NCBI GenBank assembly: GCA_965215125.1
Contig: OZ244052.1
Location: 192,001-256,000, forward strand
Reading direction: 5' to 3'
Length of the DNA: 64,000 bases
DNA from: an uncultured candidatus Porisulfidus sp.
GTDB taxonomy: Bacteria; Pseudomonadota; Gammaproteobacteria; Poriferisulfidales; Oxydemutatoraceae
The notes beneath the pieces were generated by a model. It was not told where the DNA came from and made no database searches. It saw only the letters and a program-made list of their open reading frames with translations. Below are positions 29,813 through 44,399 of the stretch, piece after piece; the stretch's first letter is position 1, and the number at the start of each line of letters is the position of its first letter. The position numbers and the translations under genes are program-made.

Positions 29813-30566
29813 CTTTCCAGTATTCTTGTTTTAGCAAATAGACTACCGCCAATAAACCGAGCAAGAATAAAATAACCCAAATGCCGACACTTTGACGTTC
29901 CAGTTTTGCCGGCTCCGCCAGATAACTCAAAAAAGTAACTATGTCCCTGACCACTCTGTCGTACTCTTCCGCCGACAAAGTGCCGGGCTTGATCAATTCA
30001 AAATCGGCAATGATTTGTCTCTGGTTGCCGTTTTCATCGGTGATAGTCTCGTATACCGGCTTTTGCCAGCCTTGTAAATCCCACATTACATGCGGCATGG
30101 CAACATGCTGGAATATTGCGTTGTTGACTCCCATAGGGCGCGTGTCGTCCAAATAGAAAGCCTTGAGATAAGTATAGAGCCAGTCCTTGCCTCGTGCGCG
30201 AGAGACCAAGGTTAAGTCCGGCGGCACCGCGCCGAACCAACTACGCGCACCTGCGTCGGGCATCGACACCACCATCAAATCTCCGACTTTGCTGTCGGTG
30301 AATATAAAATCTTCTTTCACCAACTCTTCGCTCAACCCTAAATCGCGGCCGACCCATTTATAGCGCGCATAGCGAGAACTATGACAGCTTAAACAATAAT
30401 TGACAAAGTATTTTGCGCCGCGTTGTAGCGTGTTGCGGTTATGTATGTCTATTTCTATACTCTGCAACGGATACCCTTGCGAGACCGCTGCACCGACATT
30501 GGATGGCGTCGCCGGCAAAAATAGCACTGTCAATGCGACAAACGATAGACGAAAATGCCACCTCAT
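29799..30566 (-). CDS. petC: Cytochrome c1
   Basis: CLSCH, PPDLTL and MPHV motifs with a C-terminal TM. The ATG overlaps the petB stop (ATGA). Confidence 0.95.
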   Translation of the reverse strand: MRWHFRLSFVALTVLFLPATPSNVGAAVSQGYPLQSIEIDIHNRNTLQRGAKYFVNYCLSCHSSRYARYKWVGRDLGLSEELVKEDFIFTDSKVGDLMVVSMPDAGARSWFGAVPPDLTLVSRARGKDWLYTYLKAFYLDDTRPMGVNNAIFQHVAMPHVMWDLQGWQKPVYETITDENGNQRQIIADFELIKPGTLSAEEYDRVVRDIVTFLSYLAEPAKLERQSVGIWVILFLLGLLAVVYLLKQEYWKDVEK

Positions 30567-32789: not shown

Positions 32790-32991
32790 ATTCCCCTCCT
32801 TGTAGGAGCAGAATAGAGCCGCCGATTGAGCCAGTAGGTCAATCGGCAATTTTGATGTCCGCCCTTAGGGTGGCAAGCTCCGCCTGACGGGGTGGTTGCG
32901 TCGTGGGGCTGTTGGAAAAGTATCCACGAACTGTAGGGACGGTACATTCCCCTCCTTCGGAGGGGTGGCAGGCGCAGCCTGACGGGGTGGT
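32790..32991. repeat. Cluster of family B elements with a nested family A hairpin (32816-32847)
   Basis: TTCCCCTCC..., GCCGATTGA...TCAATCGGC, and two GCCTGACGGGGTGG copies. Confidence 0.7.
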
Positions 32992-33102
32992 TGCACCGGC
33001 ACGATTAACACATCCCCACCCTACTTTAGCAAACACTTCGGGTACACTCCCCAAACAATTTGCTATACTATTGCTACAAAAAAATTGGCAAGGTTCGGAA
33101 TA

Positions 33103-33267: not shown

Positions 33268-33362
33268 AAGTTTTAGTTTCTGTTTCAGTCCCTAGGTGAG
33301 TTGTTATACTGTTGCTACTTTTTCAACAGCCCCATTTCCCTTTTCTACTTTGGTTTAGAGCG

Positions 33363-33466
33363 ACGCAACAAAAAAGCCGCCCGTAGGCGGCCTTTCGAAT
33401 GTTGCGTATATTCACACTTATTAATCCTGATACAAAAATCGTTAATGTGAAATCCCTAATTCAATT
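33363..33466 (-). ncRNA. Predicted tracrRNA
   Basis: Minus strand reads ATTGAATTAGGG-[20 nt]-GTATCAGGA-TTAAT, complementary to the crRNA repeat GTTGTCCTGATACCCCCTAATTCAAT. It is followed by stem-loops and a U-tract and lies divergently upstream of cas9. Confidence 0.8.
33370..33391 (-). terminator. Intrinsic terminator at the tracrRNA 3' end
   Basis: Minus strand GCCGCC-TACG-GGCGGC-TTTTTT. Confidence 0.8.
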
Positions 33467-33471
33467 TTTCC

Positions 33472-33500
33472 AGCGTAGCACACCTTGAATTAAAAAGCAA
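33472..33500 (-). promoter_or_regulatory. Putative sigma70 promoter for tracrRNA
   Basis: Minus strand TTGCTT-17 bp-TACGCT with an extended TG, about 6 nt upstream of the anti-repeat. Confidence 0.55.
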
Positions 33501-33587: not shown

Positions 33588-36500
33588 ATGGGAATTAAAT
33601 ATCGCTTAGGGCTGGATGTCGGTGCCAATTCACTCGGCTGGAGTGTGCTGAAACTAGACACGGATGATAAACCTTATAAAATAGAAAATGCCGGTGCACG
33701 CATTTTCTCCGACGGACGAGAACCTAAAGGTCATAGTACCTTGAAGGCAGTCAGGAGAACAGCACGATCTGCCCGCCGAAATAGAGACAGATTCAAACAG
33801 CGACAAACGTATCTGATAAAGGAACTGGAAAAAGCTAAATTGTTTCCGCCGGAATCCGATACTGCGACGCGCCATGCTATACAAAAACTTGACCCTTTAG
33901 AATTGCGGGCTAATGCGCTGCATGAAAAGCTAGACCCCTACCATATAGGTCGTGCATTATTTCATATAAATCAACGTCGCGGTTTTAAGAGCAACCGCAA
34001 AGACACCAGCAAAGAAACTAGGAGCGGTAAGGTCAGTAAATCCGTGATGGCACTATTCAAGAAAATGGGTTTAGTCCAACAAAGTTCTATCCTCGATGAA
34101 CCAGAAAAGCTCTCTGAAGAACAAAAAAAATGGATCCGACAAGAGGAAGCCAAACAAAAGAAAGAAGCGATCACTAAATTAAAAGATTCAGATATTACTT
34201 TCGGTTCGTTTTTGTGGGAACGACGCAAACAGAACCCGCCACAGGCAACCCGTGCTCGTCCCAACGTAGATGGCAAGTTATACGATCTTTATCCGACCCG
34301 AGATCTATTAGAAGACGAATTTGACAAAATCTGTGCTAAACAACAAAAATATCACCCAAAACTTTTAAGCGCGGAAGTCGTCAAACATTTGAGAAAAATT
34401 ATATTTTATCAGCGACCCTTGAAACCCCAAGAGCGCGGCAAATGTGCTTATATGTATAAGGCAGGAGAACTCCGCGCTTTCCGAGCAATGCCGAGCTTTC
34501 AACGCTATCGCATCTATCAAGAAGTTAATAACTTGGAATGGGCCGGTCCGAGACAACCATATCGTTTGAGAGATTACCCCGAAGCAAGGGATGCCGTCGT
34601 GACACTATTAGAGAAACCTACTACTAAAAAAGGCAATGTCACCTTTACTAAAATTAAGAACGTACTTAAAGATCTAGGAGTCGCAGAAGGCGAGTTCAAA
34701 TTAAATTACGAAACCTTGAAAAGAAAAAAAACAAAAAGTAAAAAAAACGAAAAGCAAAAAAAAGACTCGTCAGGTTTGGACGGCAATCTCACCTCTAATA
34801 TTATGCAAAAAGAGGATTGCATCGGAGCGCAATGGCATGATTGGCCCGTAGAAAAACAAGACTCATTCGTTGAATTGATATTAAATGACAAACTCAGCGA
34901 TGCGGAAGTCCGAGATAAGCTAATGAAAGAATACGAACTCTCTCAGGAAGTAGCTACAGTTTGTCTTGAGGCGCACTTGAAAGAAGGCACGGCTCACCTA
35001 TCCTTAAAAGCTGCCAAATTGCTCACGGAAAAAATGAAAAATGAATATTGTGTGCAATCCAAAGCAGTGGAGCGTGTCTCGGAAGAGCACAACGACTTTG
35101 TTAGTCCACTTAGATCTACCGAAGAGGGAAAATTATTAGAGCGATTACCCTATTACGGAGAGTTTTTTCAAGATGGCAAACATATAATTGAGGGAACCCT
35201 AGATAGAGAAGATGAACACGATGCCTTAAAATTTTACGGAGGTGTGACCAACCCGACGGTACACATCGCCTTGAACCAAATCCGCAATGTAATCAATGAA
35301 CTGATAAAACGATATGGGAAGCCGTCCTCCATTGTCATTGAACTAGGTAGAGAGTTACCTGTCGGTGAAGAGGAACGTAAAGAAATAGAAAAAGAGCAGA
35401 AGGAGAATCAAACGAATAATGAAAGAATTGATACAGAACTTAAGGAACTCGGACAGTTTATAAATAGGGATAACAGAATCAGGTTTCGGCTTTGGGAAGA
35501 ATTAAACAAGGATCCTGCCGGACGCAAATGCCCATTTACAGGCAAAACCATCGGTATTCATGACATATTTAGTGATGAATTTGAAGTTGAACACCTTATC
35601 CCTTTTAGCAGATCATTAGATGATAGTTTCTCTAATAAAGTATTGTGCTCAACACAAGCAAACCGAGACAAAGGGCAAAAAACTCCATACGAAGCATTTG
35701 GCGACAGTCTCGGTGGTTACAGCTGGAATGAGATTTTTGAACGTTCTAAAAGGTTGCCCGATAGCAAGCAGTGGCGATTTGAAAAAGACGCTATGAAAAA
35801 GTGGCAACGCAACGAGTCCGATTTCCTAGCCCGGCATCTAAACGACACCCGATATATCGGCAGATTAACCAAAGATTATCTTAAAGCTATCTGTCCATAC
35901 AATGAGATTTATGTTGTCACCGGAAGATTGACTGCCCTTTTACGTGGTCATTGGGGGTTAAACAGTATCCTAAACGAGATACGAACCGATGAGGAACTTA
36001 AAAGGCTTGGACAAGAGGCTAGTAAAGATAATAGAGTTAGGTATTGGCTTTGGGAAGAATTAAACGAGGATCCCAATGGGCGTGAATGTCCCTTTACAGG
36101 GAAGACTATTATTAAAGATGACATATTTAGTGATGAATTTGAAATCGGATATCTCATTCCTGATAGTACATCAAAGGGCGACAGTTTCTCTAATAAAGTG
36201 TTATGTTCGACACAAGCAAACCAAGACAAAGGACAATGTACTCCATACGAGGCATTCGGTCATAGTCCTGACGATTACAACTGGAATAATATTCTGCAAC
36301 GCTCCGAAAGATTGCCTGAAAACAAGCAATGGCGATTTTTAGAAGACGCTATGGAAAAATGGCAGAGCAGAAATTTTGGTAGCAGCAGCTATAATAAAGC
36401 AAAGAAAAGCCGCGACGACCATAGGCATCATGCGATTGATGCCATTGTAATCGGAATGACTACGAGAAGTATCTTGCAACAAGTAGCAACGGCTGCCAAC

Positions 36501-37406
36501 CAATCCGAGGAGTTAAACCTTCCGTATTTATTTAATAAAAAAGAAAATGGTAAAAGCGCAATTGATCCATGGCTCGGATTTCGTGCAGATGTGAAAAACA
36601 TAATAGATAATATCATCGTTTCTCATAGAAAAAGGAACAAACAGTTAGGACAAGGTAGCACAAAGTTAGGACGCGATAGCACAAGCGGACAGCTGCACAA
36701 TAGTACTGCTTATGGCATAGTGACAAAACATGATAATAAAGAGAGTACGGTTGTAGTGCGCCGATCTATAGACAATTTAGTAGGCAAAAAAGAGGGACGC
36801 AGGAAAAGACTGGAATCCATTTGCGACAATTATTTAAGAGAACAATTTTTAGATGCGTTTGATGGCAATGGCAAGGAGGGTGTGATGATTCTAGCTAAAC
36901 AGAAAAATATCAGAGGGTTGCGTTGTATTCAAAATTTATCAATCATTCCTATTAAGGATAAAGAAGGACGGGAATATAAGGCTTTTCACGGAGATAGCAA
37001 CTGGGGATACGAAATTTACGAATACCCGAAAGGACATAAAAAAGCAGGGAAATGGGTAGGATTTCCCATTTCTACTCATGATGCCAATCAAAAAAACTTT
37101 CAACCGGGTTTAACCTTGCGCCGCCGCCATCACCTTCATCCAACCGCTAAACTTGTAATGCGTTTGCATGTCAATGACTATGTGGAAATTATCGGAGAAG
37201 ATGGTACACCGCAAATCATGCGTCTACAGAAAATTTCAAAAGGCTTAGATTTTATTCCTCCTAACGAAGCAAATGTCGCTAAGCGAGTAAAGAATAAAGA
37301 ATTAAAGTTCTTTAATAAGTCAGGCGGTAGCCTACAAAAGCTAAAAAGTCGTAAAATACATATTAGCCCGACAGGGCTTAAAAATTACGATGGCAATTGT
37401 AGCTAA
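33588..37406 (+). CDS. cas9: Type II-C Cas9 with an internally duplicated HNH domain
   Basis: RuvC-I YRLGLDVGANSLGW, Arg-rich bridge helix, QRRGFKSNRK, NPTVHIALNQ/IVIELGRE (RuvC-II), HNH EVEHLIPFSRSLDDSFSNKVL, RuvC-III RDDHRHHAIDA. A second HNH-like copy lies at aa 799-926. Confidence 0.97.
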   Translation: MGIKYRLGLDVGANSLGWSVLKLDTDDKPYKIENAGARIFSDGREPKGHSTLKAVRRTARSARRNRDRFKQRQTYLIKELEKAKLFPPESDTATRHAIQKLDPLELRANALHEKLDPYHIGRALFHINQRRGFKSNRKDTSKETRSGKVSKSVMALFKKMGLVQQSSILDEPEKLSEEQKKWIRQEEAKQKKEAITKLKDSDITFGSFLWERRKQNPPQATRARPNVDGKLYDLYPTRDLLEDEFDKICAKQQKYHPKLLSAEVVKHLRKIIFYQRPLKPQERGKCAYMYKAGELRAFRAMPSFQRYRIYQEVNNLEWAGPRQPYRLRDYPEARDAVVTLLEKPTTKKGNVTFTKIKNVLKDLGVAEGEFKLNYETLKRKKTKSKKNEKQKKDSSGLDGNLTSNIMQKEDCIGAQWHDWPVEKQDSFVELILNDKLSDAEVRDKLMKEYELSQEVATVCLEAHLKEGTAHLSLKAAKLLTEKMKNEYCVQSKAVERVSEEHNDFVSPLRSTEEGKLLERLPYYGEFFQDGKHIIEGTLDREDEHDALKFYGGVTNPTVHIALNQIRNVINELIKRYGKPSSIVIELGRELPVGEEERKEIEKEQKENQTNNERIDTELKELGQFINRDNRIRFRLWEELNKDPAGRKCPFTGKTIGIHDIFSDEFEVEHLIPFSRSLDDSFSNKVLCSTQANRDKGQKTPYEAFGDSLGGYSWNEIFERSKRLPDSKQWRFEKDAMKKWQRNESDFLARHLNDTRYIGRLTKDYLKAICPYNEIYVVTGRLTALLRGHWGLNSILNEIRTDEELKRLGQEASKDNRVRYWLWEELNEDPNGRECPFTGKTIIKDDIFSDEFEIGYLIPDSTSKGDSFSNKVLCSTQANQDKGQCTPYEAFGHSPDDYNWNNILQRSERLPENKQWRFLEDAMEKWQSRNFGSSSYNKAKKSRDDHRHHAIDAIVIGMTTRSILQQVATAANQSEELNLPYLFNKKENGKSAIDPWLGFRADVKNIIDNIIVSHRKRNKQLGQGSTKLGRDSTSGQLHNSTAYGIVTKHDNKESTVVVRRSIDNLVGKKEGRRKRLESICDNYLREQFLDAFDGNGKEGVMILAKQKNIRGLRCIQNLSIIPIKDKEGREYKAFHGDSNWGYEIYEYPKGHKKAGKWVGFPISTHDANQKNFQPGLTLRRRHHLHPTAKLVMRLHVNDYVEIIGEDGTPQIMRLQKISKGLDFIPPNEANVAKRVKNKELKFFNKSGGSLQKLKSRKIHISPTGLKNYDGNCS

Positions 37407-37435: not shown

Positions 37436-38350
37436 ATGCCCGACCAAATCGTTGAAATTACGCAACCGGGTTATTGGTTGAGTAAGTCACGCGGATTTTT
37501 AGAAGTTCAAAGCAACGATGAAAACCAAATCGGTGGAAAGATACCATTAGATGATATTCTATCGGTTGTTATTTCTACTCCAGGATGTTCTCTATCAACC
37601 GTTCTCATAGATTACCTGAGTCGTCGCAATATCCCCATTACGATATGCGGAGCAAACTACCTACCCACAACACTTATCTTACCGATAGATGGTTACAATA
37701 GACAATTCCAAGTCATGCAAAGCCAAACCGATTTATCGGCACCGCGCCGGAAGCGCGCATGGCAAGCTATAGTCAGAGCTAAAATACAAAATCAAGCCGA
37801 TTTACTGGAGTTTGTCGGCAAAAATAATATGCAATTAAAACGCTTAATCTCAAATGTGAAATCCGGCGATGTGGATAATTGCGAAGCTCAAGCAGCACGC
37901 ATTTATTGGCAAAGTTTGTTCGGCGAAGATTTTCGTCGTGACCGCACTGCCACAGATTTGAATACTCCGCTCAACTATATTTACACGGTTATTAGAGCGT
38001 GTATTGCTCGCGGGATTAGCAGTGCAGGATTACATCCTACATTCAGCATACACCATAAAAATCCACAAAATGCATTCAACCTCGCCGATGATTTGATTGA
38101 ACCCTATCGCCCTATTGCCGATTGCTTTGTTTGGAAAAAATATTTCAATAAATTTGATCGACTGACCCCCGAAGTAAAAGCATCTTTAACAAGCATCGTA
38201 AATCTACAAATCCCTGTAGGAGACGAAGTATCCCCTTTATCGTTGGCTGCCATTAAGACATGCCGTTCTTTCGCAAGCTATTGCCTCAATGAAGCAACAA
38301 ATATCTTACTTCCTAAGCTACCTATGTCTTTAGAAATAGGGGCTTTATGA
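37436..38350 (+). CDS. cas1: Type II Cas1
   Basis: SGD..NCEAQAARIYW, LNY.Y and HH....NAFNLADDLIEPYRP motifs. Confidence 0.96.
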   Translation: MPDQIVEITQPGYWLSKSRGFLEVQSNDENQIGGKIPLDDILSVVISTPGCSLSTVLIDYLSRRNIPITICGANYLPTTLILPIDGYNRQFQVMQSQTDLSAPRRKRAWQAIVRAKIQNQADLLEFVGKNNMQLKRLISNVKSGDVDNCEAQAARIYWQSLFGEDFRRDRTATDLNTPLNYIYTVIRACIARGISSAGLHPTFSIHHKNPQNAFNLADDLIEPYRPIADCFVWKKYFNKFDRLTPEVKASLTSIVNLQIPVGDEVSPLSLAAIKTCRSFASYCLNEATNILLPKLPMSLEIGAL

Positions 38351-38691
38351 GTAGTAACCAAAACCATCTAAGCCCGTATCGCATTATGTGGTTATTTGTA
38401 ATGTTTGACTTGCCGGTAGGCACTAAAAAAGAGAGAGAGCAGGCAACAAAATTTCGTCAAGGGCTTCTTGATTTAGGGTTTGAAATGTCACAATTTTCGG
38501 TATACTTAAAATACTGTCCATCAAAAGAAAAATCGGAAGTAGTTAGTGACAAAGTCAAAGTTAAAATTCCGATTGGAGGTAAAGTAGATATTCTGATGAT
38601 AACCGATAAACAGTTTTCAGGCATGAAAAGATTTTATGCAAAAATCGAAATTAAAAGCAGTGCAAAACCGAAGCAGTTACATATCTTTTGA
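38347..38691 (+). CDS. cas2: Cas2
   Basis: YRIMWLFVMFDLPV, GFEMSQFSVY and ITDKQF motifs. No csn2 or cas4 follows, which indicates subtype II-C. Confidence 0.96.
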   Translation: MSSNQNHLSPYRIMWLFVMFDLPVGTKKEREQATKFRQGLLDLGFEMSQFSVYLKYCPSKEKSEVVSDKVKVKIPIGGKVDILMITDKQFSGMKRFYAKIEIKSSAKPKQLHIF

Positions 38692-38752: not shown

Positions 38753-39632
38753 GATTATACCATTGAATTAGGGGGTATCAGGACAACGTACATTGTGATG
38801 ACCTTGTCAAAAAAAAGGATTATACCATTGAATTAGGGGGTATCAGGACAACTCATAATCATCATCAAACAAACTATCGTCTGATTATACCATTGAATTA
38901 GGGGGTATCAGGACAACTGTGTAATAGTTATTAGCGAGATGCTCGTAGATTATACCATTGAATTAGGGGGTATCAGGACAACGCCTGGGTCATTATATAT
39001 CTAAGGAGATTAGATTATACCATTGAATTAGGGGGTATCAGGACAACCTAAATAGACCGGTAGTAAGCGGCGATCAGGATTATACCATTGAATTAGGGGG
39101 TATCAGGACAACACTATGACCCAGCTTTTGATTCACCTGATAGATTATACCATTGAATTAGGGGGTATCAGGACAACTATTTGTTGGAATGACTGGGTTG
39201 AGTTTATGATTATACCATTGAATTAGGGGGTATCAGGACAACTAGAAGGAGACGTTCAACTAGACGTACCTAGATTATACCATTGAATTAGGGGGTATCA
39301 GGACAACTTATCAACTTCAACTTCAACTTCAACGCCAGATTATACCATTGAATTAGGGGGTATCAGGACAACTATATTTTACTTCTTTGCATATGATAAC
39401 TCGATTATACCATTGAATTAGGGGGTATCAGGACAACTTGGTGAGCCTTCTCGTGCAAACTATTTTAGATTATACCATTGAATTAGGGGGTATCAGGACA
39501 ACTTATCAACTTCAATATCAACATCAACGCCAGATTATACCATTGAATTAGGGGGTATCAGGACAACTCCTTGCGCGCCATTAAGAACAGGGGGATTGAT
39601 TATACCATTGAATTAGGGGGTATCAGGACAAC
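38753..39632 (-). CRISPR. CRISPR array part 1 (repeats 1-14)
   Basis: Invariant 35-nt repeat GATTATACCATTGAATTAGGGGGTATCAGGACAAC every 65 nt with 30-nt spacers. Orientation inferred from the GTT start and tracrRNA complementarity. Confidence 0.98.
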
Positions 39633-39701
39633 AAACTGACCTTCCCCCATTTTCAGGGCCAAAACTTAAATGAGATCTGTATTATAAGTCACCTCTGTGC
39701 C

Positions 39702-39914
39702 TTATGCTAATAAAATCTTAAATAAAGCTAGATTTCCAAGCTCGCATTCCAATATGGGTTGGTTATTCTCGTTCAGTGGCAATTTAGACAAAATCCTATG
39801 TTGTTGCCTAAATTGAAGTCTTGCAACTAAAAAACCAGCCTCATAATGCGCCTTTAAGCGACGATCTCTAGTCGAGATGACCTCTACTAGCTGCTGATTT
39901 TTAGCTCGTTTCAT
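39702..39914 (-). CDS. Possible 70-aa passenger ORF within the IS
   Basis: ATG-started ORF between the transposase stop and the IS end. No recognisable motif. Confidence 0.3.
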   Translation of the reverse strand: MKRAKNQQLVEVISTRDRRLKAHYEAGFLVARLQFRQQHRILSKLPLNENNQPILECELGNLALFKILLA

Positions 39915-39935
39915 AACTACTAAACAAGCCTTACG

Positions 39936-40754
39936 CTACGCAACACGTGTGGCGAATGCTACCGGGGTCATATAATCTAATGAGCTATGCGGGCGTTCAT
40001 GGTTATAGTGGTATCGCCACTGTTCAATAATATGACGCACTTCCTGAAGGCTGCGGAACCAGTGCTGGTTAAGGCAATTGTCTCTAAACTTACCGTTCAG
40101 GCTTTCCACCAAAGCATTCTGGGTCGGTTTACCCGGTTGAATAAAGTATAGTTCCACGCCGCTATCTTGCGACCAGACCTGCATCTTTTTACTAGTGAAC
40201 TCCGGCCCGTTGTCGCAGACGATGCTTTGCGGACAACCTCGCTCGGCGATGAGTTGCTCTAAACATCTCACCACTTGCCCACTGCTAATCGAAAAACCAG
40301 CGAATTGACCGATCAGTTCGCGACTGTAATCGTCCATCACATTGAATATCCTAAACGACCTGCCGTCGCTTAACCGATCATGCACAAAGTCCATTGACCA
40401 GCGACAATTCACCTGTTCAGGCAATGCCTGCCGTTGCCTCGTGCGGATGAGCTTCTTGCGCAGTCTTTTGGGTACTTGCAGTCTCGCTTCTTTGTAGATG
40501 CGGTGAACCCGTTTTTTATTCACTACAAAGCCTGCCTCTCGTAGCAAACGGTAGAGTAGCAAATAGCCATAGCGTGGATACTTGCTTGCCAACTCGCACA
40601 AGCGACTTCTAATCTCTGCATCACAACGCGGCTGTGTTCGATAGTGATAACTACTACGGCTTATCCCGACCAGCTCGCAACTGCGCCTCTCACTCAAACT
40701 CCAATGGGTATTCAGCTCTGCAACAACGCTTCTTTTGCTTGCCGGGGTCACCAC
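39936..40754 (-). CDS. IS3 OrfB (DDE integrase core)
   Basis: WSMDFVHD, CDNGPEF, PGKPTQNALVESLNGKFR and YNHERPHSSL motifs. Confidence 0.95.
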   Translation of the reverse strand: MVTPASKRSVVAELNTHWSLSERRSCELVGISRSSYHYRTQPRCDAEIRSRLCELASKYPRYGYLLLYRLLREAGFVVNKKRVHRIYKEARLQVPKRLRKKLIRTRQRQALPEQVNCRWSMDFVHDRLSDGRSFRIFNVMDDYSRELIGQFAGFSISSGQVVRCLEQLIAERGCPQSIVCDNGPEFTSKKMQVWSQDSGVELYFIQPGKPTQNALVESLNGKFRDNCLNQHWFRSLQEVRHIIEQWRYHYNHERPHSSLDYMTPVAFATRVA

Positions 40755-41011
40755 TTTTTTGATAGCACATCCTTGAGGGCGGTGATTTCTAATAGTTGCT
40801 CGCCGAGTAGTTTCTTGAGTCGGTTATTCTCCGATACAAGGTTCTTTAATCGCTTGGCATCATTGACTTCTAACCCGGCATATTTGCTACGCCAGTTGTA
40901 AAAGGTGCCATGCGCTATACCGAGTTCTCGGCAAATGTCCTCTGTGCTGCGACCTGCCTCGTGCGATTTGATCGCACCGATAATTTGCTCTTCTGTATAT
41001 CGTTTATTCAT
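40748..41011 (-). CDS. IS3 OrfA (HTH) with -1 frameshift signal A6G at the orfA/orfB overlap
   Basis: KRYTEEQII...CRELGI...TFYNWRSKY...LSKKW, with AAAAAAGTGGTGA at the junction. Confidence 0.93.
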   Translation of the reverse strand: MNKRYTEEQIIGAIKSHEAGRSTEDICRELGIAHGTFYNWRSKYAGLEVNDAKRLKNLVSENNRLKKLLGEQLLEITALKDVLSKKW

Positions 41012-41118
41012 TTTGAAACCTCCTGTTGTTTACTAATTTAACTGGAAATCTCATCTTTGTCATGGCCCAGTTTTGGGGGGTAAGGTCAAAACCCCGACAA
41101 GACCAACCGTAAGCCTAA

Positions 41119-43168
41119 GATTATACCATTGAATTAGGGGGTATCAGGACAACTAGTGTTGCTGAACTAATGCTTGCTTGAGAGATTATACCATTGAATT
41201 AGGGGGTATCAGGACAACTTGCGGATAAAATTGTCTTCACAACTTGAAGATTATACCATTGAATTAGGGGGTATCAGGACAACTCGACCTCAATCGTAAC
41301 ATCAACACCATGCGATTATACCATTGAATTAGGGGGTATCAGGACAACTTCCAATATCGTACCTTGCGCTGCAGCTGCGATTATACCATTGAATTAGGGG
41401 GTATCAGGACAACTTGCTTCAATATAGCTATATAAGCATATGCGATTATACCATTGAATTAGGGGGTATCAGGACAACGAACAGCACCGACCGCCGGTCT
41501 AAATCTAGGATTATACCATTGAATTAGGGGGTATCAGGACAACGTGCATTGTGATGACCTTGTGAAAAAAAAGGATTATACCATTGAATTAGGGGGTATC
41601 AGGACAACTATTCTTTATCGTAGTTAGGCGGATATAATGATTATACCATTGAATTAGGGGGTATCAGGACAACTACAGTACAGTTGGCTGTATTAAATGA
41701 TTGGGATTATACCATTGAATTAGGGGGTATCAGGACAACTTTCGTGCCTATAAAGTGATATGGAATGAGGATTATACCATTGAATTAGGGGGTATCAGGA
41801 CAACGTAGGCGCCGTGCTTATTGGACGCGTTCCAGATTATACCATTGAATTAGGGGGTATCAGGACAACGTTTGGAAGTATGGTTTTGTTTATTTTAAGG
41901 ATTATACCATTGAATTAGGGGGTATCAGGACAACATATGGGTCCACTCGCCCCTTGCACATTCCGATTATACCATTGAATTAGGGGGTATCAGGACAACG
42001 GCGATAGTCTTTACTCTATTTTCGGTGCAGATTATACCATTGAATTAGGGGGTATCAGGACAACAATGGGACCGCCTGCAGATAAAGACGGTATGATTAT
42101 ACCATTGAATTAGGGGGTATCAGGACAACAATCTAAAATTATTTCCAATGTTTCACATGGATTATACCATTGAATTAGGGGGTATCAGGACAACTAATAA
42201 CGTCTCGATTCGTGATGTATATGCGATTATACCATTGAATTAGGGGGTATCAGGACAACAAACGGCTCCATGTCCCATAAAATTATAAGGATTATACCAT
42301 TGAATTAGGGGGTATCAGGACAACCAAGTTACGGTTACTAATCTATCTCAACATGATTATACCATTGAATTAGGGGGTATCAGGACAACGCGTGGGTCAT
42401 TATATATCTAAGGAGATTAGATTATACCATTGAATTAGGGGGTATCAGGACAACATGACCCCTATTCCGCCTTCCGCTGTTGCTGATTATACCATTGAAT
42501 TAGGGGGTATCAGGACAACTGCGGGCGCAAAGCCAGTATTTTAGACTCCGATTATACCATTGAATTAGGGGGTATCAGGACAACTAATAACGTCTCGATT
42601 CGTGATGTATATGCGATTATACCATTGAATTAGGGGGTATCAGGACAACTCGGCGGTACTGATCTCGGTTCATCGGTTTAGATTATACCATTGAATTAGG
42701 GGGTATCAGGACAACTTTCACTAATAAGCGTAATTTCAACGAGTTGATTATACCATTGAATTAGGGGGTATCAGGACAACGTTATCGGCGAGATATTCAT
42801 AACATTCGTCGATTATACCATTGAATTAGGGGGTATCAGGACAACATAACAATTATACATGGCGTTACAAGCAAAAGATTATACCATTGAATTAGGGGGT
42901 ATCAGGACAACTCGTCGACGACGGCAATTACATCAAGAGAAGATTATACCATTGAATTAGGGGGTATCAGGACAACTTCGTCTTATACCGCCACTTATAC
43001 CCGTTAGATTATACCATTGAATTAGGGGGTATCAGGACAACATCTATCGTAACATTTTCATGAATAGTGTCGATTATACCATTGAATTAGGGGGTATCAG
43101 GACAACTTGTTTCTCTTTCTGCATAAGCGCAAAAAATGATTATACCATTGAATTAGGGGGTATCAGGA
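41119..43168 (-). CRISPR. CRISPR array part 2 (repeats 15-46, last repeat truncated by an IS)
   Basis: Same 35-nt repeat with 30-31-nt spacers. The final repeat stops at ...TATCAGGA, where the IS begins. Confidence 0.98.
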
Positions 43169-44399
43169 TGACGTTCTCCCCAAATTTAGTACCAATGTTA
43201 AAGTCAGTTTTTCCGATAAACTAGAGAAGTTAAAAACATTACAGGAGAACCTAACATGAAGAGAACCGCCGATTGAACCAGTGGGTCAATCGGCGTGACA
43301 CTGTGCAGAAACTTAATGTGGTCAAACGAAGCCGGCATGAAAGTAGTAGATATCTGTCGTGATCTAGGCATCGCCGAGAAAACATTTTATCGCTGGCGCA
43401 GAAAGTATAATGGCATGGAAGTATCGGAAGCCAGACGCCTGAAAGAGCCTGAAGCCGAGAACGGCAAGCTCAAGAAGCTATTGGCTGAATCGGTGATGAA
43501 GTGTGAAACACTAGAGGAGGTTTTATCAAAAAAGTGGTAAAGCCGGCGCAGCGCAAGCAGATTGTCAAAGATCTAGTGGGTGCGGGTCGGCATAGTGAAC
43601 GCACCGCTTGCGAGTTGATTGGTGTCAGTCGCAGTGCTTATCGCTATCAAGGCAAGCCAGCCGATAAAGATTGCCAACTGGAAGCCGCATTATCGGAGAA
43701 GGCAAAGCAGTATCCGCATTATGGCTATAAGATGCTGCATGCTCTACTAAAGTGCGAAGGCCGGGTCGTCAATGTGAAGCGCACCTATAGACTTTATAAG
43801 AAGCTCGGGCTTGGATTGAGAACCAAGAAGCACAACAAGCTGTGTCGTCCGCGTTGCGTGCCGACAACACCGACTAGAGTGAATGAGTGCTGGTCAATGG
43901 ACTTTGTGCATGACCAGCTCAGCGACGGCAGACGCTTTCGGGTATTGAACATAGTAGATAACTTCAGCCGTGAATGTGTCGGGCAGATTGTTGATGTTTC
44001 AATTACCGGCCAACGCGTAGCAAACTATCTATCCGAATTGATAGAACGGCTTGGTGCAAAGCCGACACGCATCGTCTGCGGCAATGGCACCGAGTTTAGA
44101 TGCAAGGCCATGTTCCACTGGAGCCGAGACCAGCAGGTGGAATTGGATTTTATTCAGCCCGGCAAACCGACCCAGAATACCTTTGTAGAAAGTTTCAACG
44201 GTAAGTTCCGAGACGGTTGCCTGAACCAGTTCTGGTTTCGTTGAATAAAATAAGCAAGAGAGACTATAGAAGCCTGGCGCATAGATTATAATGAAGTCCG
44301 TCCGCACAGCGCATTGGGGTATCAACCCCCGAGTGTATTTGCGGAGGCAATAGCATGAAAACTGACATTGCAAGTGGTCCTAAAAATGGGGTAACGTCA
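43169..44399 (+). mobile_element. Degenerate IS3-family element
   Basis: TGACGTT...AACGTCA termini with no target duplication. Confidence 0.9.
43256..44358 (+). pseudogene. Inactivated IS3 transposase (orfA/orfB)
   Basis: orfA ATG 43256 hits an in-frame TGA within a family A element. orfB has CGNG instead of catalytic CDNG and a stop at 44242-44244, with the RPHSALGY remnant continuing in frame to 44358. Confidence 0.88.

Follow-up and report, generated by a model that had tools for sequence, protein, structure and literature searches.

A Cas9 protein with two HNH regions

We analyzed a 64,000-nt stretch of DNA (here called the window) from an uncultured candidatus Porisulfidus sp., a member of the Gammaproteobacteria (positions 192,001 to 256,000 of contig OZ244052.1, assembly GCA_965215125.1). 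The window carries a CRISPR (clustered regularly interspaced short palindromic repeats) locus with the gene order cas9, cas1_NMENI, cas2, and array, and its Cas9 contains two HNH regions, which we call copy 1 and copy 2 (Table 1). Each test that we applied classes this protein as a type II-C Cas9. An AlphaFold2 (AF2) model of amino acids (aa) 1–1200, built from 116 sequences, had a predicted local distance difference test score (pLDDT) of 79.4 and a predicted template modeling score (pTM) of 0.57, and Foldseek matched it to II-C Cas9 structures with a probability of 1.00 (template modeling (TM) scores of 0.55/0.61 for Nme1Cas9 with its single-guide RNA; E = 1.6e-32 for ThermoCas9). The window's Cas9 is thus like Nme1Cas9, GeoCas9, and ThermoCas9 (6jdq, 8jtj, 9ar4) in its overall fold (E around 1e-32, TM scores up to 0.55/0.61) and in the catalytic residues of RuvC-I, RuvC-II, RuvC-III, and HNH. 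It is unlike them in that they have one HNH domain and a contiguous RuvC-III. In an alignment of 116 sequences, D10, E585, H948, D951, H669, N683, and N692 of the window's Cas9 fall in invariant or nearly invariant columns. Because copy 1 and all of the RuvC catalytic residues are conserved in the alignment, the protein is expected to cleave both strands in the ordinary way.

The original prediction, which was made from the letters of the window, had counted by hand 89 identities in a gapless alignment of aa 613–740 with aa 799–926, and BLASTP returned exactly this count (89/128 identical, 105/128 positives, zero gaps, E = 5e-66). In the DNA, the two copies form a direct repeat of 300 nt (35469–35768 versus 36027–36326; 76% identity, with a spacing of 558 nt), and they are 73.7% identical across their full 384 nt. 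The Pfam family HNH_4 (PF13395) had been expected to match twice, and it matched two stretches of the whole protein; scored alone, each copy lies above the cut-off of 22 bits, copy 1 with 87.5 bits and copy 2 with 64.9. At the catalytic position, E668-H669 of copy 1 aligns with G854-Y855 of copy 2, just as described. By descent and fold, copy 2 is a member of HNH_4, and it lacks the catalytic dyad.

Copy 2 had also been placed between two RuvC-III motifs that are normally joined by a short loop, and the comparisons agree. When aligned to L006 from genome G044, which is the closest single-HNH Cas9 with DNA at hand, the insert of about 136 aa starts directly after the conserved Gly-Leu-Asn-Ser-Ile-Leu of RuvC-III and ends about 15 residues ahead of the catalytic His/Asp motif (aa 945–952); G044 matches only aa 4–796 and 928–1269 of the window's Cas9. 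In the Nme1Cas9 structure (6jdq), query aa 553–794 correspond to chain residues 472–715 and query aa 941–976 to chain residues 716–750. In other words, the flanks of the insert (query 794 and 941) are adjacent there (chain 715 and 716), and about 146 residues (aa 795–940), most of which form the second HNH domain, have no counterpart. We could measure the distance between the flanking RuvC-III motifs in 115 of 123 relatives (the other eight have no recognizable motif): it is 154–157 aa in seven double-HNH proteins, including the window's, and at most 55 aa in the other 108. Furthermore, Pfam RuvC_III matches as two stretches in all of the double-HNH proteins. L006 and two closer single-HNH proteins, P0008 (1128 aa) and P0009 (1127 aa), have one HNH_4 stretch and one unbroken RuvC_III stretch. 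P0008 and P0009 are 83% and 76% identical to the window's protein over the covered half of aa 600–1000, and they have a 22-aa acidic loop at the site of the insert, where L006 has a short loop.

Table 1. Features of the CRISPR locus in the window, with domains of Cas9 (positions are those of the window)
Feature	Position	Strand	Evidence
Candidate tracrRNA (ends are an unmapped estimate): anti-repeat at 33421–33490, then, on the minus strand, a GC hairpin and T-run (about 33365–33400)	33360..33490	-	Duplex energy; hairpin and T-run read from the sequence
cas9, 1272 aa, type II-C	33588..37406	+	TIGR01865 (Cas9 equivalog), 695.7 bits (cut-off 100); AF2 model of aa 1–1200 matches Nme1Cas9, ThermoCas9, GeoCas9
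HNH copy 1 (aa 613–740), canonical; Glu668-His669, Asn683, and Asn692 intact	35424..35807	+	Pfam; alignment columns
RuvC-III, N-terminal part (aa 741–794), between the HNH copies	35808..35969	+	Pfam RuvC_III in two stretches; alignment to single-HNH L006
Insert relative to single-HNH Cas9s (aa ~795–930), comprising copy 2 and short linkers	35970..36377	+	Gap in L006; G044 match pattern; flanks adjacent in Nme1Cas9 6jdq
HNH copy 2 (aa 799–926), degenerate	35982..36365	+	BLASTP; Pfam; AF2 fold of the region alone
Gly854-Tyr855, at the position of the catalytic Glu-His dyad	36147..36152	+	Alignment of the copies
RuvC-III catalytic motif (aa 945–952; invariant His948, Asp951), starting ~15 aa past the end of the insert	36420..36443	+	Invariant columns in the 116-sequence alignment
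cas1, type II, NMENI subtype	37436..38350	+	TIGR03639, 255.4 bits (cut-off 120)
cas2	38347..38691	+	TIGR01573, 55.8 bits (cut-off 24.5)
CRISPR array, block 1: 14 identical repeats, 65-nt period	38753..39632
IS3-family transposase open reading frames (ORFs) in the array: orfB 39936–40754, orfA 40748–41011	39936..41011	-	NF033516, 241.7 bits (cut-off 160)
CRISPR array, block 2: 32 repeats, the last degenerate (2 mismatches)	41119..43172

That a double-HNH Cas9 is real and is maintained by selection seems to us nearly certain. We compared contigs from public sequencing runs with the window over positions 35000–36800. One of these contigs (X1) spans 35000–36368 with 0 differences, and another, from a different study (X4), spans 35000–36292 with 31 substitutions and no gap; a second X4 contig reaches 36800. 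No joints or indels were reported in the X1 and X4 contigs across both copies (35000–36800). X1 may be the window's own source, and X4 is independent support. None of the runs listed as carrying this DNA is recorded as RNA. Full-length orthologs are also found in two further closed, single-contig genomes of the same genus (G003, with 90% identity, and G001, with 83%), where the gene order is as in the window: a Rieske gene upstream, then cas9, cas1, cas2, and the array. To this we can add a search of 5.8 billion protein clusters with aa 600–1000 as the query, in which 4 of the 120 matches listed cover both copies (P0004–P0007; 81%–93% identical); the other matches listed cover about half. The search for homologs with the same insertion thus led to seven distinct double-HNH Cas9s, namely the window's, P0004–P0007, and two genome-derived proteins that are distinct from those four. 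Three of the seven are encoded in closed genomes, and all seven have two HNH_4 stretches.

The distribution of this architecture is narrow. Among 53 genomes of the order, two matches were found in 3, a single match in 11, and no match in 39. When 185,579 species genomes were scanned with copy 2, there were five loci, and the two close ones are the same-genus genomes that were already counted, so they are not extra evidence. Of the cluster representatives that copy 2 matched, the best 150 all lack a second HNH stretch, and a longer search with copy 2 (nine proteins with E ≤ 1e-30 among 82 candidates) returned the same four double-HNH proteins and no new one. Among the 271 Cas9-family proteins that we collected, five have two HNH places. 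These searches did not select on domain architecture, and unrelated double-HNH Cas9s may exist elsewhere.

Could the two-copy structure be an artifact of assembly or sequencing, or a very recent duplication that is not under selection? Assemblers can in principle be misled by repeats, but we found no actual support for this, and we give the idea practically no chance of being right. The copies differ at 26% of their bases, and their synonymous divergence (dS) is 0.8–1.7, which argues against a recent duplication. Contigs from two studies bridge both copies, and three closed genomes and another four protein clusters share the architecture. Divergence, spanning contigs, and recurrence in seven proteins together rule this explanation out, as the original prediction had argued from divergence.

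Origin, decay, and constraint of the second HNH

We built a tree of 57 HNH domains, in which all seven sequences of copy 2 fall into a single clade (support of 100/100) on a stem of 0.39 changes per site. This clade groups with the copy 1 sequences and with the single domains of P0008 and P0009 (83/71), and the whole group falls within the lineage's 20-row clade (100/96), which contains its copy 1 and single HNH domains. Because there is a single copy 2 clade and it is nested within the lineage's HNH domains, the tree indicates that copy 2 arose once, from this lineage's own HNH. We also considered the insertion of a homing endonuclease or another foreign HNH and rejected it: copy 2 shares 70% identity with the HNH of the same protein, and its place in the tree is among the lineage's Cas9 HNH domains. 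The long stem branch points to fast early change in copy 2, and on the tree its divergence is slow afterwards. As for age, dS is 0.8–1.7 between the copies and 0.18–0.57 between orthologs, so the duplication is older than the split of the three genomes (the window's, G003, and G001). An old duplication had been proposed, and these values bear it out.

The later history of the insert is less simple. P0008 and P0009, which lack it, are sister to two double-HNH proteins (P0005 and L005, the Cas9 of G001) in insert-free trees of the whole protein, of the N-terminal part, and of the C-terminal part, and a tree that forces the seven double-HNH proteins together is rejected (approximately unbiased (AU) test, p = 1.9e-8). 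The simplest reading of these trees is one gain, and then one loss or replacement of the insert within the clade. The insert may also have spread by recombination between alleles, and P0006, whose copy 2 groups differently from the rest of the protein, hints at such recombination.

We noticed several small features around the copies. At the protein level, both junctions of the insert are followed by Arg-Asn-like residues; this fits a tandem duplication followed by a deletion, which we offer only as a suggestion. A synonymous serine codon reads AGT in L003 and L004 (the Cas9 of G003) and AGC in L005, in each case in both copies, and a 36-nt run is identical between the two HNH copies of L005. 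There is a hint here of short gene conversion between the copies.

To quantify constraint, we computed the ratio of non-synonymous to synonymous rates (dN/dS) by the pairwise Nei-Gojobori approach for three ortholog pairs from three genomes. For copy 2, the ratios were 0.140, 0.146, and 0.112, with upper bootstrap bounds of 0.31, 0.30, and 0.23. For copy 1, they were 0.332, 0.163, and 0.235; the N-terminal 612 aa gave 0.15–0.18 and the C-terminal part gave 0.18–0.37. On these estimates, copy 2 is under constraint as strong as the rest of Cas9, and its ratios are far from the value of about 1 that had been set against a maintained duplication. Furthermore, 11 columns are fixed in copy 2 for a residue that never occurs in copy 1 or in the six nearest single-HNH proteins (for example, Arg634Trp and Lys647Glu), and 40 of 137 columns are invariant across both HNH copies.

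The pair L003–L004 is one in which the ratio is higher for copy 1 (0.33) than for copy 2 (0.14). In the cas9 of G003 (L004; L015 4062–7856), copy 1 is unusual in its substitutions close to the metal-binding Asn; in Asp-Lys-Gly, for example, Arg takes the place of Gly.

The active site of copy 2 has changed in different ways in different proteins. Gly-Tyr replaces Glu-His in six of the seven copy 2 sequences, and the metal-binding Asn is Lys in two of the seven (P0007 and L004) and is kept in the other five, including the window's (Asn878). L004 has both changes. The residue after the metal-binding Asn is Arg in nearly all canonical copies, and it is Gln or His in all seven copy 2 sequences. 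These alignments show at least two routes of active-site decay across lineages. In the window's copy 2, the general-base His and the adjacent acidic metal ligand are both absent, and we consider this copy very probably non-catalytic. The claim that copy 2 is non-catalytic therefore holds up for the window's protein, where both residues are replaced, but it does not extend as it stands to the ortholog P0007, which keeps Glu-His.

P0007 also lends itself to the argument that, in some members at least, copy 2 could still work as a nuclease or nickase and would then form a third active site; the conservation in all copies of the beta-beta-alpha core, of Asn-Lys-Val-Leu, and of Asp-Lys-Gly could be counted on the same side. 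We think that this is very improbable. The dyad is Gly-Tyr in the other six proteins, and P0007 itself has Lys at the metal-binding Asn. In SpCas9, the equivalent change (N863A) inactivates HNH. Basic residues have been lost from copy 2 as well. Its net charge is -3 to -9 (isoelectric point of 4.6–5.5), as compared to -5 to +3 for copy 1. Given the acidic shift and the lost basic residues, copy 2 probably does not bind DNA in the manner of a working HNH.

Structure prediction suggests that copy 2 is a folded, HNH-like beta-beta-alpha domain. Modeled alone with AF2, aa 790–940 had a pLDDT of 91.6 and a pTM of 0.84, and the best match of this model in the PDB was the isolated HNH domain of GeoCas9 (7mpz; TM scores of 0.71/0.77, root mean square deviation of 2.3 Å). 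In the 1200-aa model, the blocks of copy 2 have pLDDT values of 63–85, and the order of helices and strands (from DSSP) is the same as in copy 1. The linker at aa 929–938 has pLDDT below 50, like the linkers that flank copy 1 (aa 589–593 and 744–751).

The CRISPR locus around cas9

The genes that had been reported next to cas9 are present (Table 1). As in other type II-C systems, there is a cas9-cas1-cas2 operon, an array with 36-nt repeats, and an upstream anti-repeat. The ORFs upstream encode a Rieske protein and cytochrome b. Among the ORFs that were scanned, we found neither csn2 nor cas4 in the operon. The best repeat:anti-repeat duplex has an energy of -29.6 kcal/mol. The anti-repeat (33421–33490) pairs with both ends of the repeat and leaves about 20 nt unpaired in the middle, which is a large bulge for a duplex of trans-activating CRISPR RNA (tracrRNA) and CRISPR RNA. 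Between positions 30000 and 42000, Rfam at its gathering thresholds gave no family and no curated tracrRNA match. A GC-rich element of about 60 nt occurs twice at 32790–33000, between the Rieske gene and cas9 and upstream of the tracrRNA candidate.

The array (38753–43172) was described as long and homogeneous. It does have 46 repeats, of which 45 are identical and the last has 2 mismatches, but it is not continuous: an IS3-family element (39633–41118) interrupts it between repeats 14 and 15. We extracted 44 spacers, 43 of them unique, as one 30-nt spacer is present twice. The array of G003 is also split by a transposase ORF (L015 10527–11739), which has the other orientation and a different location. 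With just 51% identity between the two transposases, these are independent insertions into the arrays. No spacer is common to the arrays of the window, G003, and G001, which argues for live and independently evolving CRISPR systems.

Within cas9, there is an A-rich tandem repeat at 34719–34763 (about aa 378–392) that encodes a Lys-rich, low-complexity stretch in the recognition (REC) lobe. This stretch has pLDDT below 50 at aa 379–388 and is longer in G003 (L015 5193–5252). The A runs of this repeat could be prone to slippage.

Possible roles of the second HNH and their significance

The results above show the following history. An ancestor of this small Cas9 clade copied its own HNH (about 131 aa, with the end of the L1 helix included), and the copy landed 54 residues downstream, in the RuvC-III loop before the helix that carries the RuvC catalytic His and Asp. 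Copy 2 then diverged quickly, lost its catalytic residues and several basic residues, and turned acidic; afterwards, it has been held by purifying selection as a folded, HNH-like pseudo-nuclease domain. Overall, we think it somewhat probable that this explanation (a duplicate of the protein's own HNH that decayed and was kept as a non-catalytic accessory module) is correct as a whole.

What the accessory might do is more tentative. A flexible linker at its C-terminal end would tether copy 2 some 15 residues ahead of the RuvC catalytic motif, where it could act as a steric or electrostatic accessory that probably does not cut. It might alter the access of the displaced non-target strand to the RuvC site, the positioning of that strand there, or its release; alternatively, it might alter the docking of the true HNH. 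The stretch right after the insert is one that we take, from the SpCas9 motif, to correspond to the region of R976 and H982. In SpCas9, the mutations R976A and H982A, which lie just before the RuvC catalytic His, relaxed the positioning of the non-target-strand nick (PMC12571883). A role for copy 2 in modulating RuvC and non-target-strand handling, or the docking of copy 1, is a possibility that we hold loosely and would not yet bet on.

The nearest relatives show what else can occupy this site. The distance across the RuvC-III loop is 35–55 aa in the single-HNH proteins P0008–P0012, as compared to 20–29 aa in most relatives. The nearest single-HNH relatives have an enlarged, acidic version of the loop (net charge of -3 to -8), whereas the typical loop core is 8.5 aa with a net charge of -0.9. 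P0010, P0011, and P0012 have low-complexity acidic expansions of 22–42 aa, rich in Asp, Asn, and Glu, in this same loop. In this lineage, the RuvC-III loop thus looks like a hot spot where acidic sequence is inserted, and the expanded acidic loops at the same site suggest that an acidic module here is favored in the lineage.

The variable length of this loop could also mean that copy 2 is a tolerated passenger at a permissive surface loop, with no role in interference and with selection acting only to keep it folded and soluble. That P0008 and P0009 do without the insert, even though they are nested in the double-HNH clade and a single clade of double-HNH proteins is rejected, would fit as well. 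We nevertheless consider a passenger unlikely. The dN/dS of copy 2 (0.11–0.15) is no higher than that of the catalytic copy 1 (0.16–0.33), there are 11 fixed residues that are specific to copy 2 along with a consistent acidic shift, and the insert has been retained while at least seven distinct proteins diverged. Also, rapid change on the stem that then gives way to stasis resembles a change of function more than it resembles drift.

AcrIIC1, an anti-CRISPR protein, contacts the catalytic residues of HNH, which copy 2 lacks. This bears on another alternative, in which copy 2 acts in cis as a decoy for HNH-binding anti-CRISPR proteins or as a shield against them. Judging from the titles of entries, many complexes of II-C Cas9 HNH domains with AcrIIC1 or AcrIIC3 have been solved, which makes HNH a frequent target, and a dead copy would bind inhibitors at no cost to cleavage. 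However, the surface of copy 2 has diverged from that of copy 1 (30% of residues differ, and the charge has shifted by as much as 10 units), a divergence that a mimic would be expected to avoid. No Acr gene, for which no dedicated search was made, came to light, and we consider a decoy improbable.

Several points weigh against a maintained accessory module. First, the dN/dS values come from three genomes and from few changes (7.7–18.2 non-synonymous changes in copy 2), and a gene-conversion tract between the copies could possibly inflate the apparent constraint locally. Second, with Glu-His retained in copy 2 of P0007, residual activity in some members is conceivable. Third, the alignment used to model copy 2 consists of canonical HNH domains and so is biased towards the HNH fold, and the full-length model, with a pTM of only 0.57, does not place copy 2 relative to the RuvC site or the DNA. 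Finally, at least one lineage can do without the insert, since it is missing from P0008 and P0009, two sister proteins that are intact.

To our knowledge, the architecture of Cas9 is regarded as fixed, with one HNH nested in one RuvC. In the main texts of papers outside subscription journals, we found no description of a Cas9 with a second or duplicated HNH, in agreement with the original prediction, which knew of no characterized Cas9 with this architecture. The matches listed for Cas9 and two HNH domains appear to concern Cap5, TasH, and SPARHA instead. This architecture would surprise a Cas9 specialist: an entire additional domain, derived from HNH, has been taken up some 15 residues away from the RuvC catalytic His and is kept under selection.

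In the ancestry of Cas9, as described for IsrB, IscB, and Cas9, HNH was originally nested inside the RuvC fold. The Cas9 described here is like that ancestral step in that a whole HNH domain was inserted into a RuvC loop and tolerated. It is unlike it in that this insertion is a second and later one, 54 residues downstream, which came from the protein's own HNH and whose active site has decayed. It also resembles pseudo-enzyme domains in general, with duplication, fast early divergence, loss of catalysis by differing substitutions in each lineage, and then purifying selection. For evolutionary studies, it is a clean case of the formation of a pseudo-nuclease, with decay of the active site by different routes in each lineage. 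For engineering, it marks a site in compact II-C Cas9s that is permissive for the insertion of a domain of about 135 aa. P0005 and L005 versus P0008 and P0009 offer a natural comparison, with and without the insert, of a module at the non-target-strand side of RuvC, in which P0008 and P0009 are natural insert-less controls.

Copy 2 may be a built-in regulator of Cas9: a mobile, acidic pseudo-HNH beside the RuvC catalytic helix that gates or positions the non-target strand or competes for the docking site of HNH. We see this as a fair-sized possibility, though one that falls a little short of an even chance. If true, such a regulator would change the position of the nick, fidelity, product release or turnover, or resistance to anti-CRISPR proteins, and it would be a natural second nesting of HNH in RuvC, repeating the step behind IscB and Cas9.

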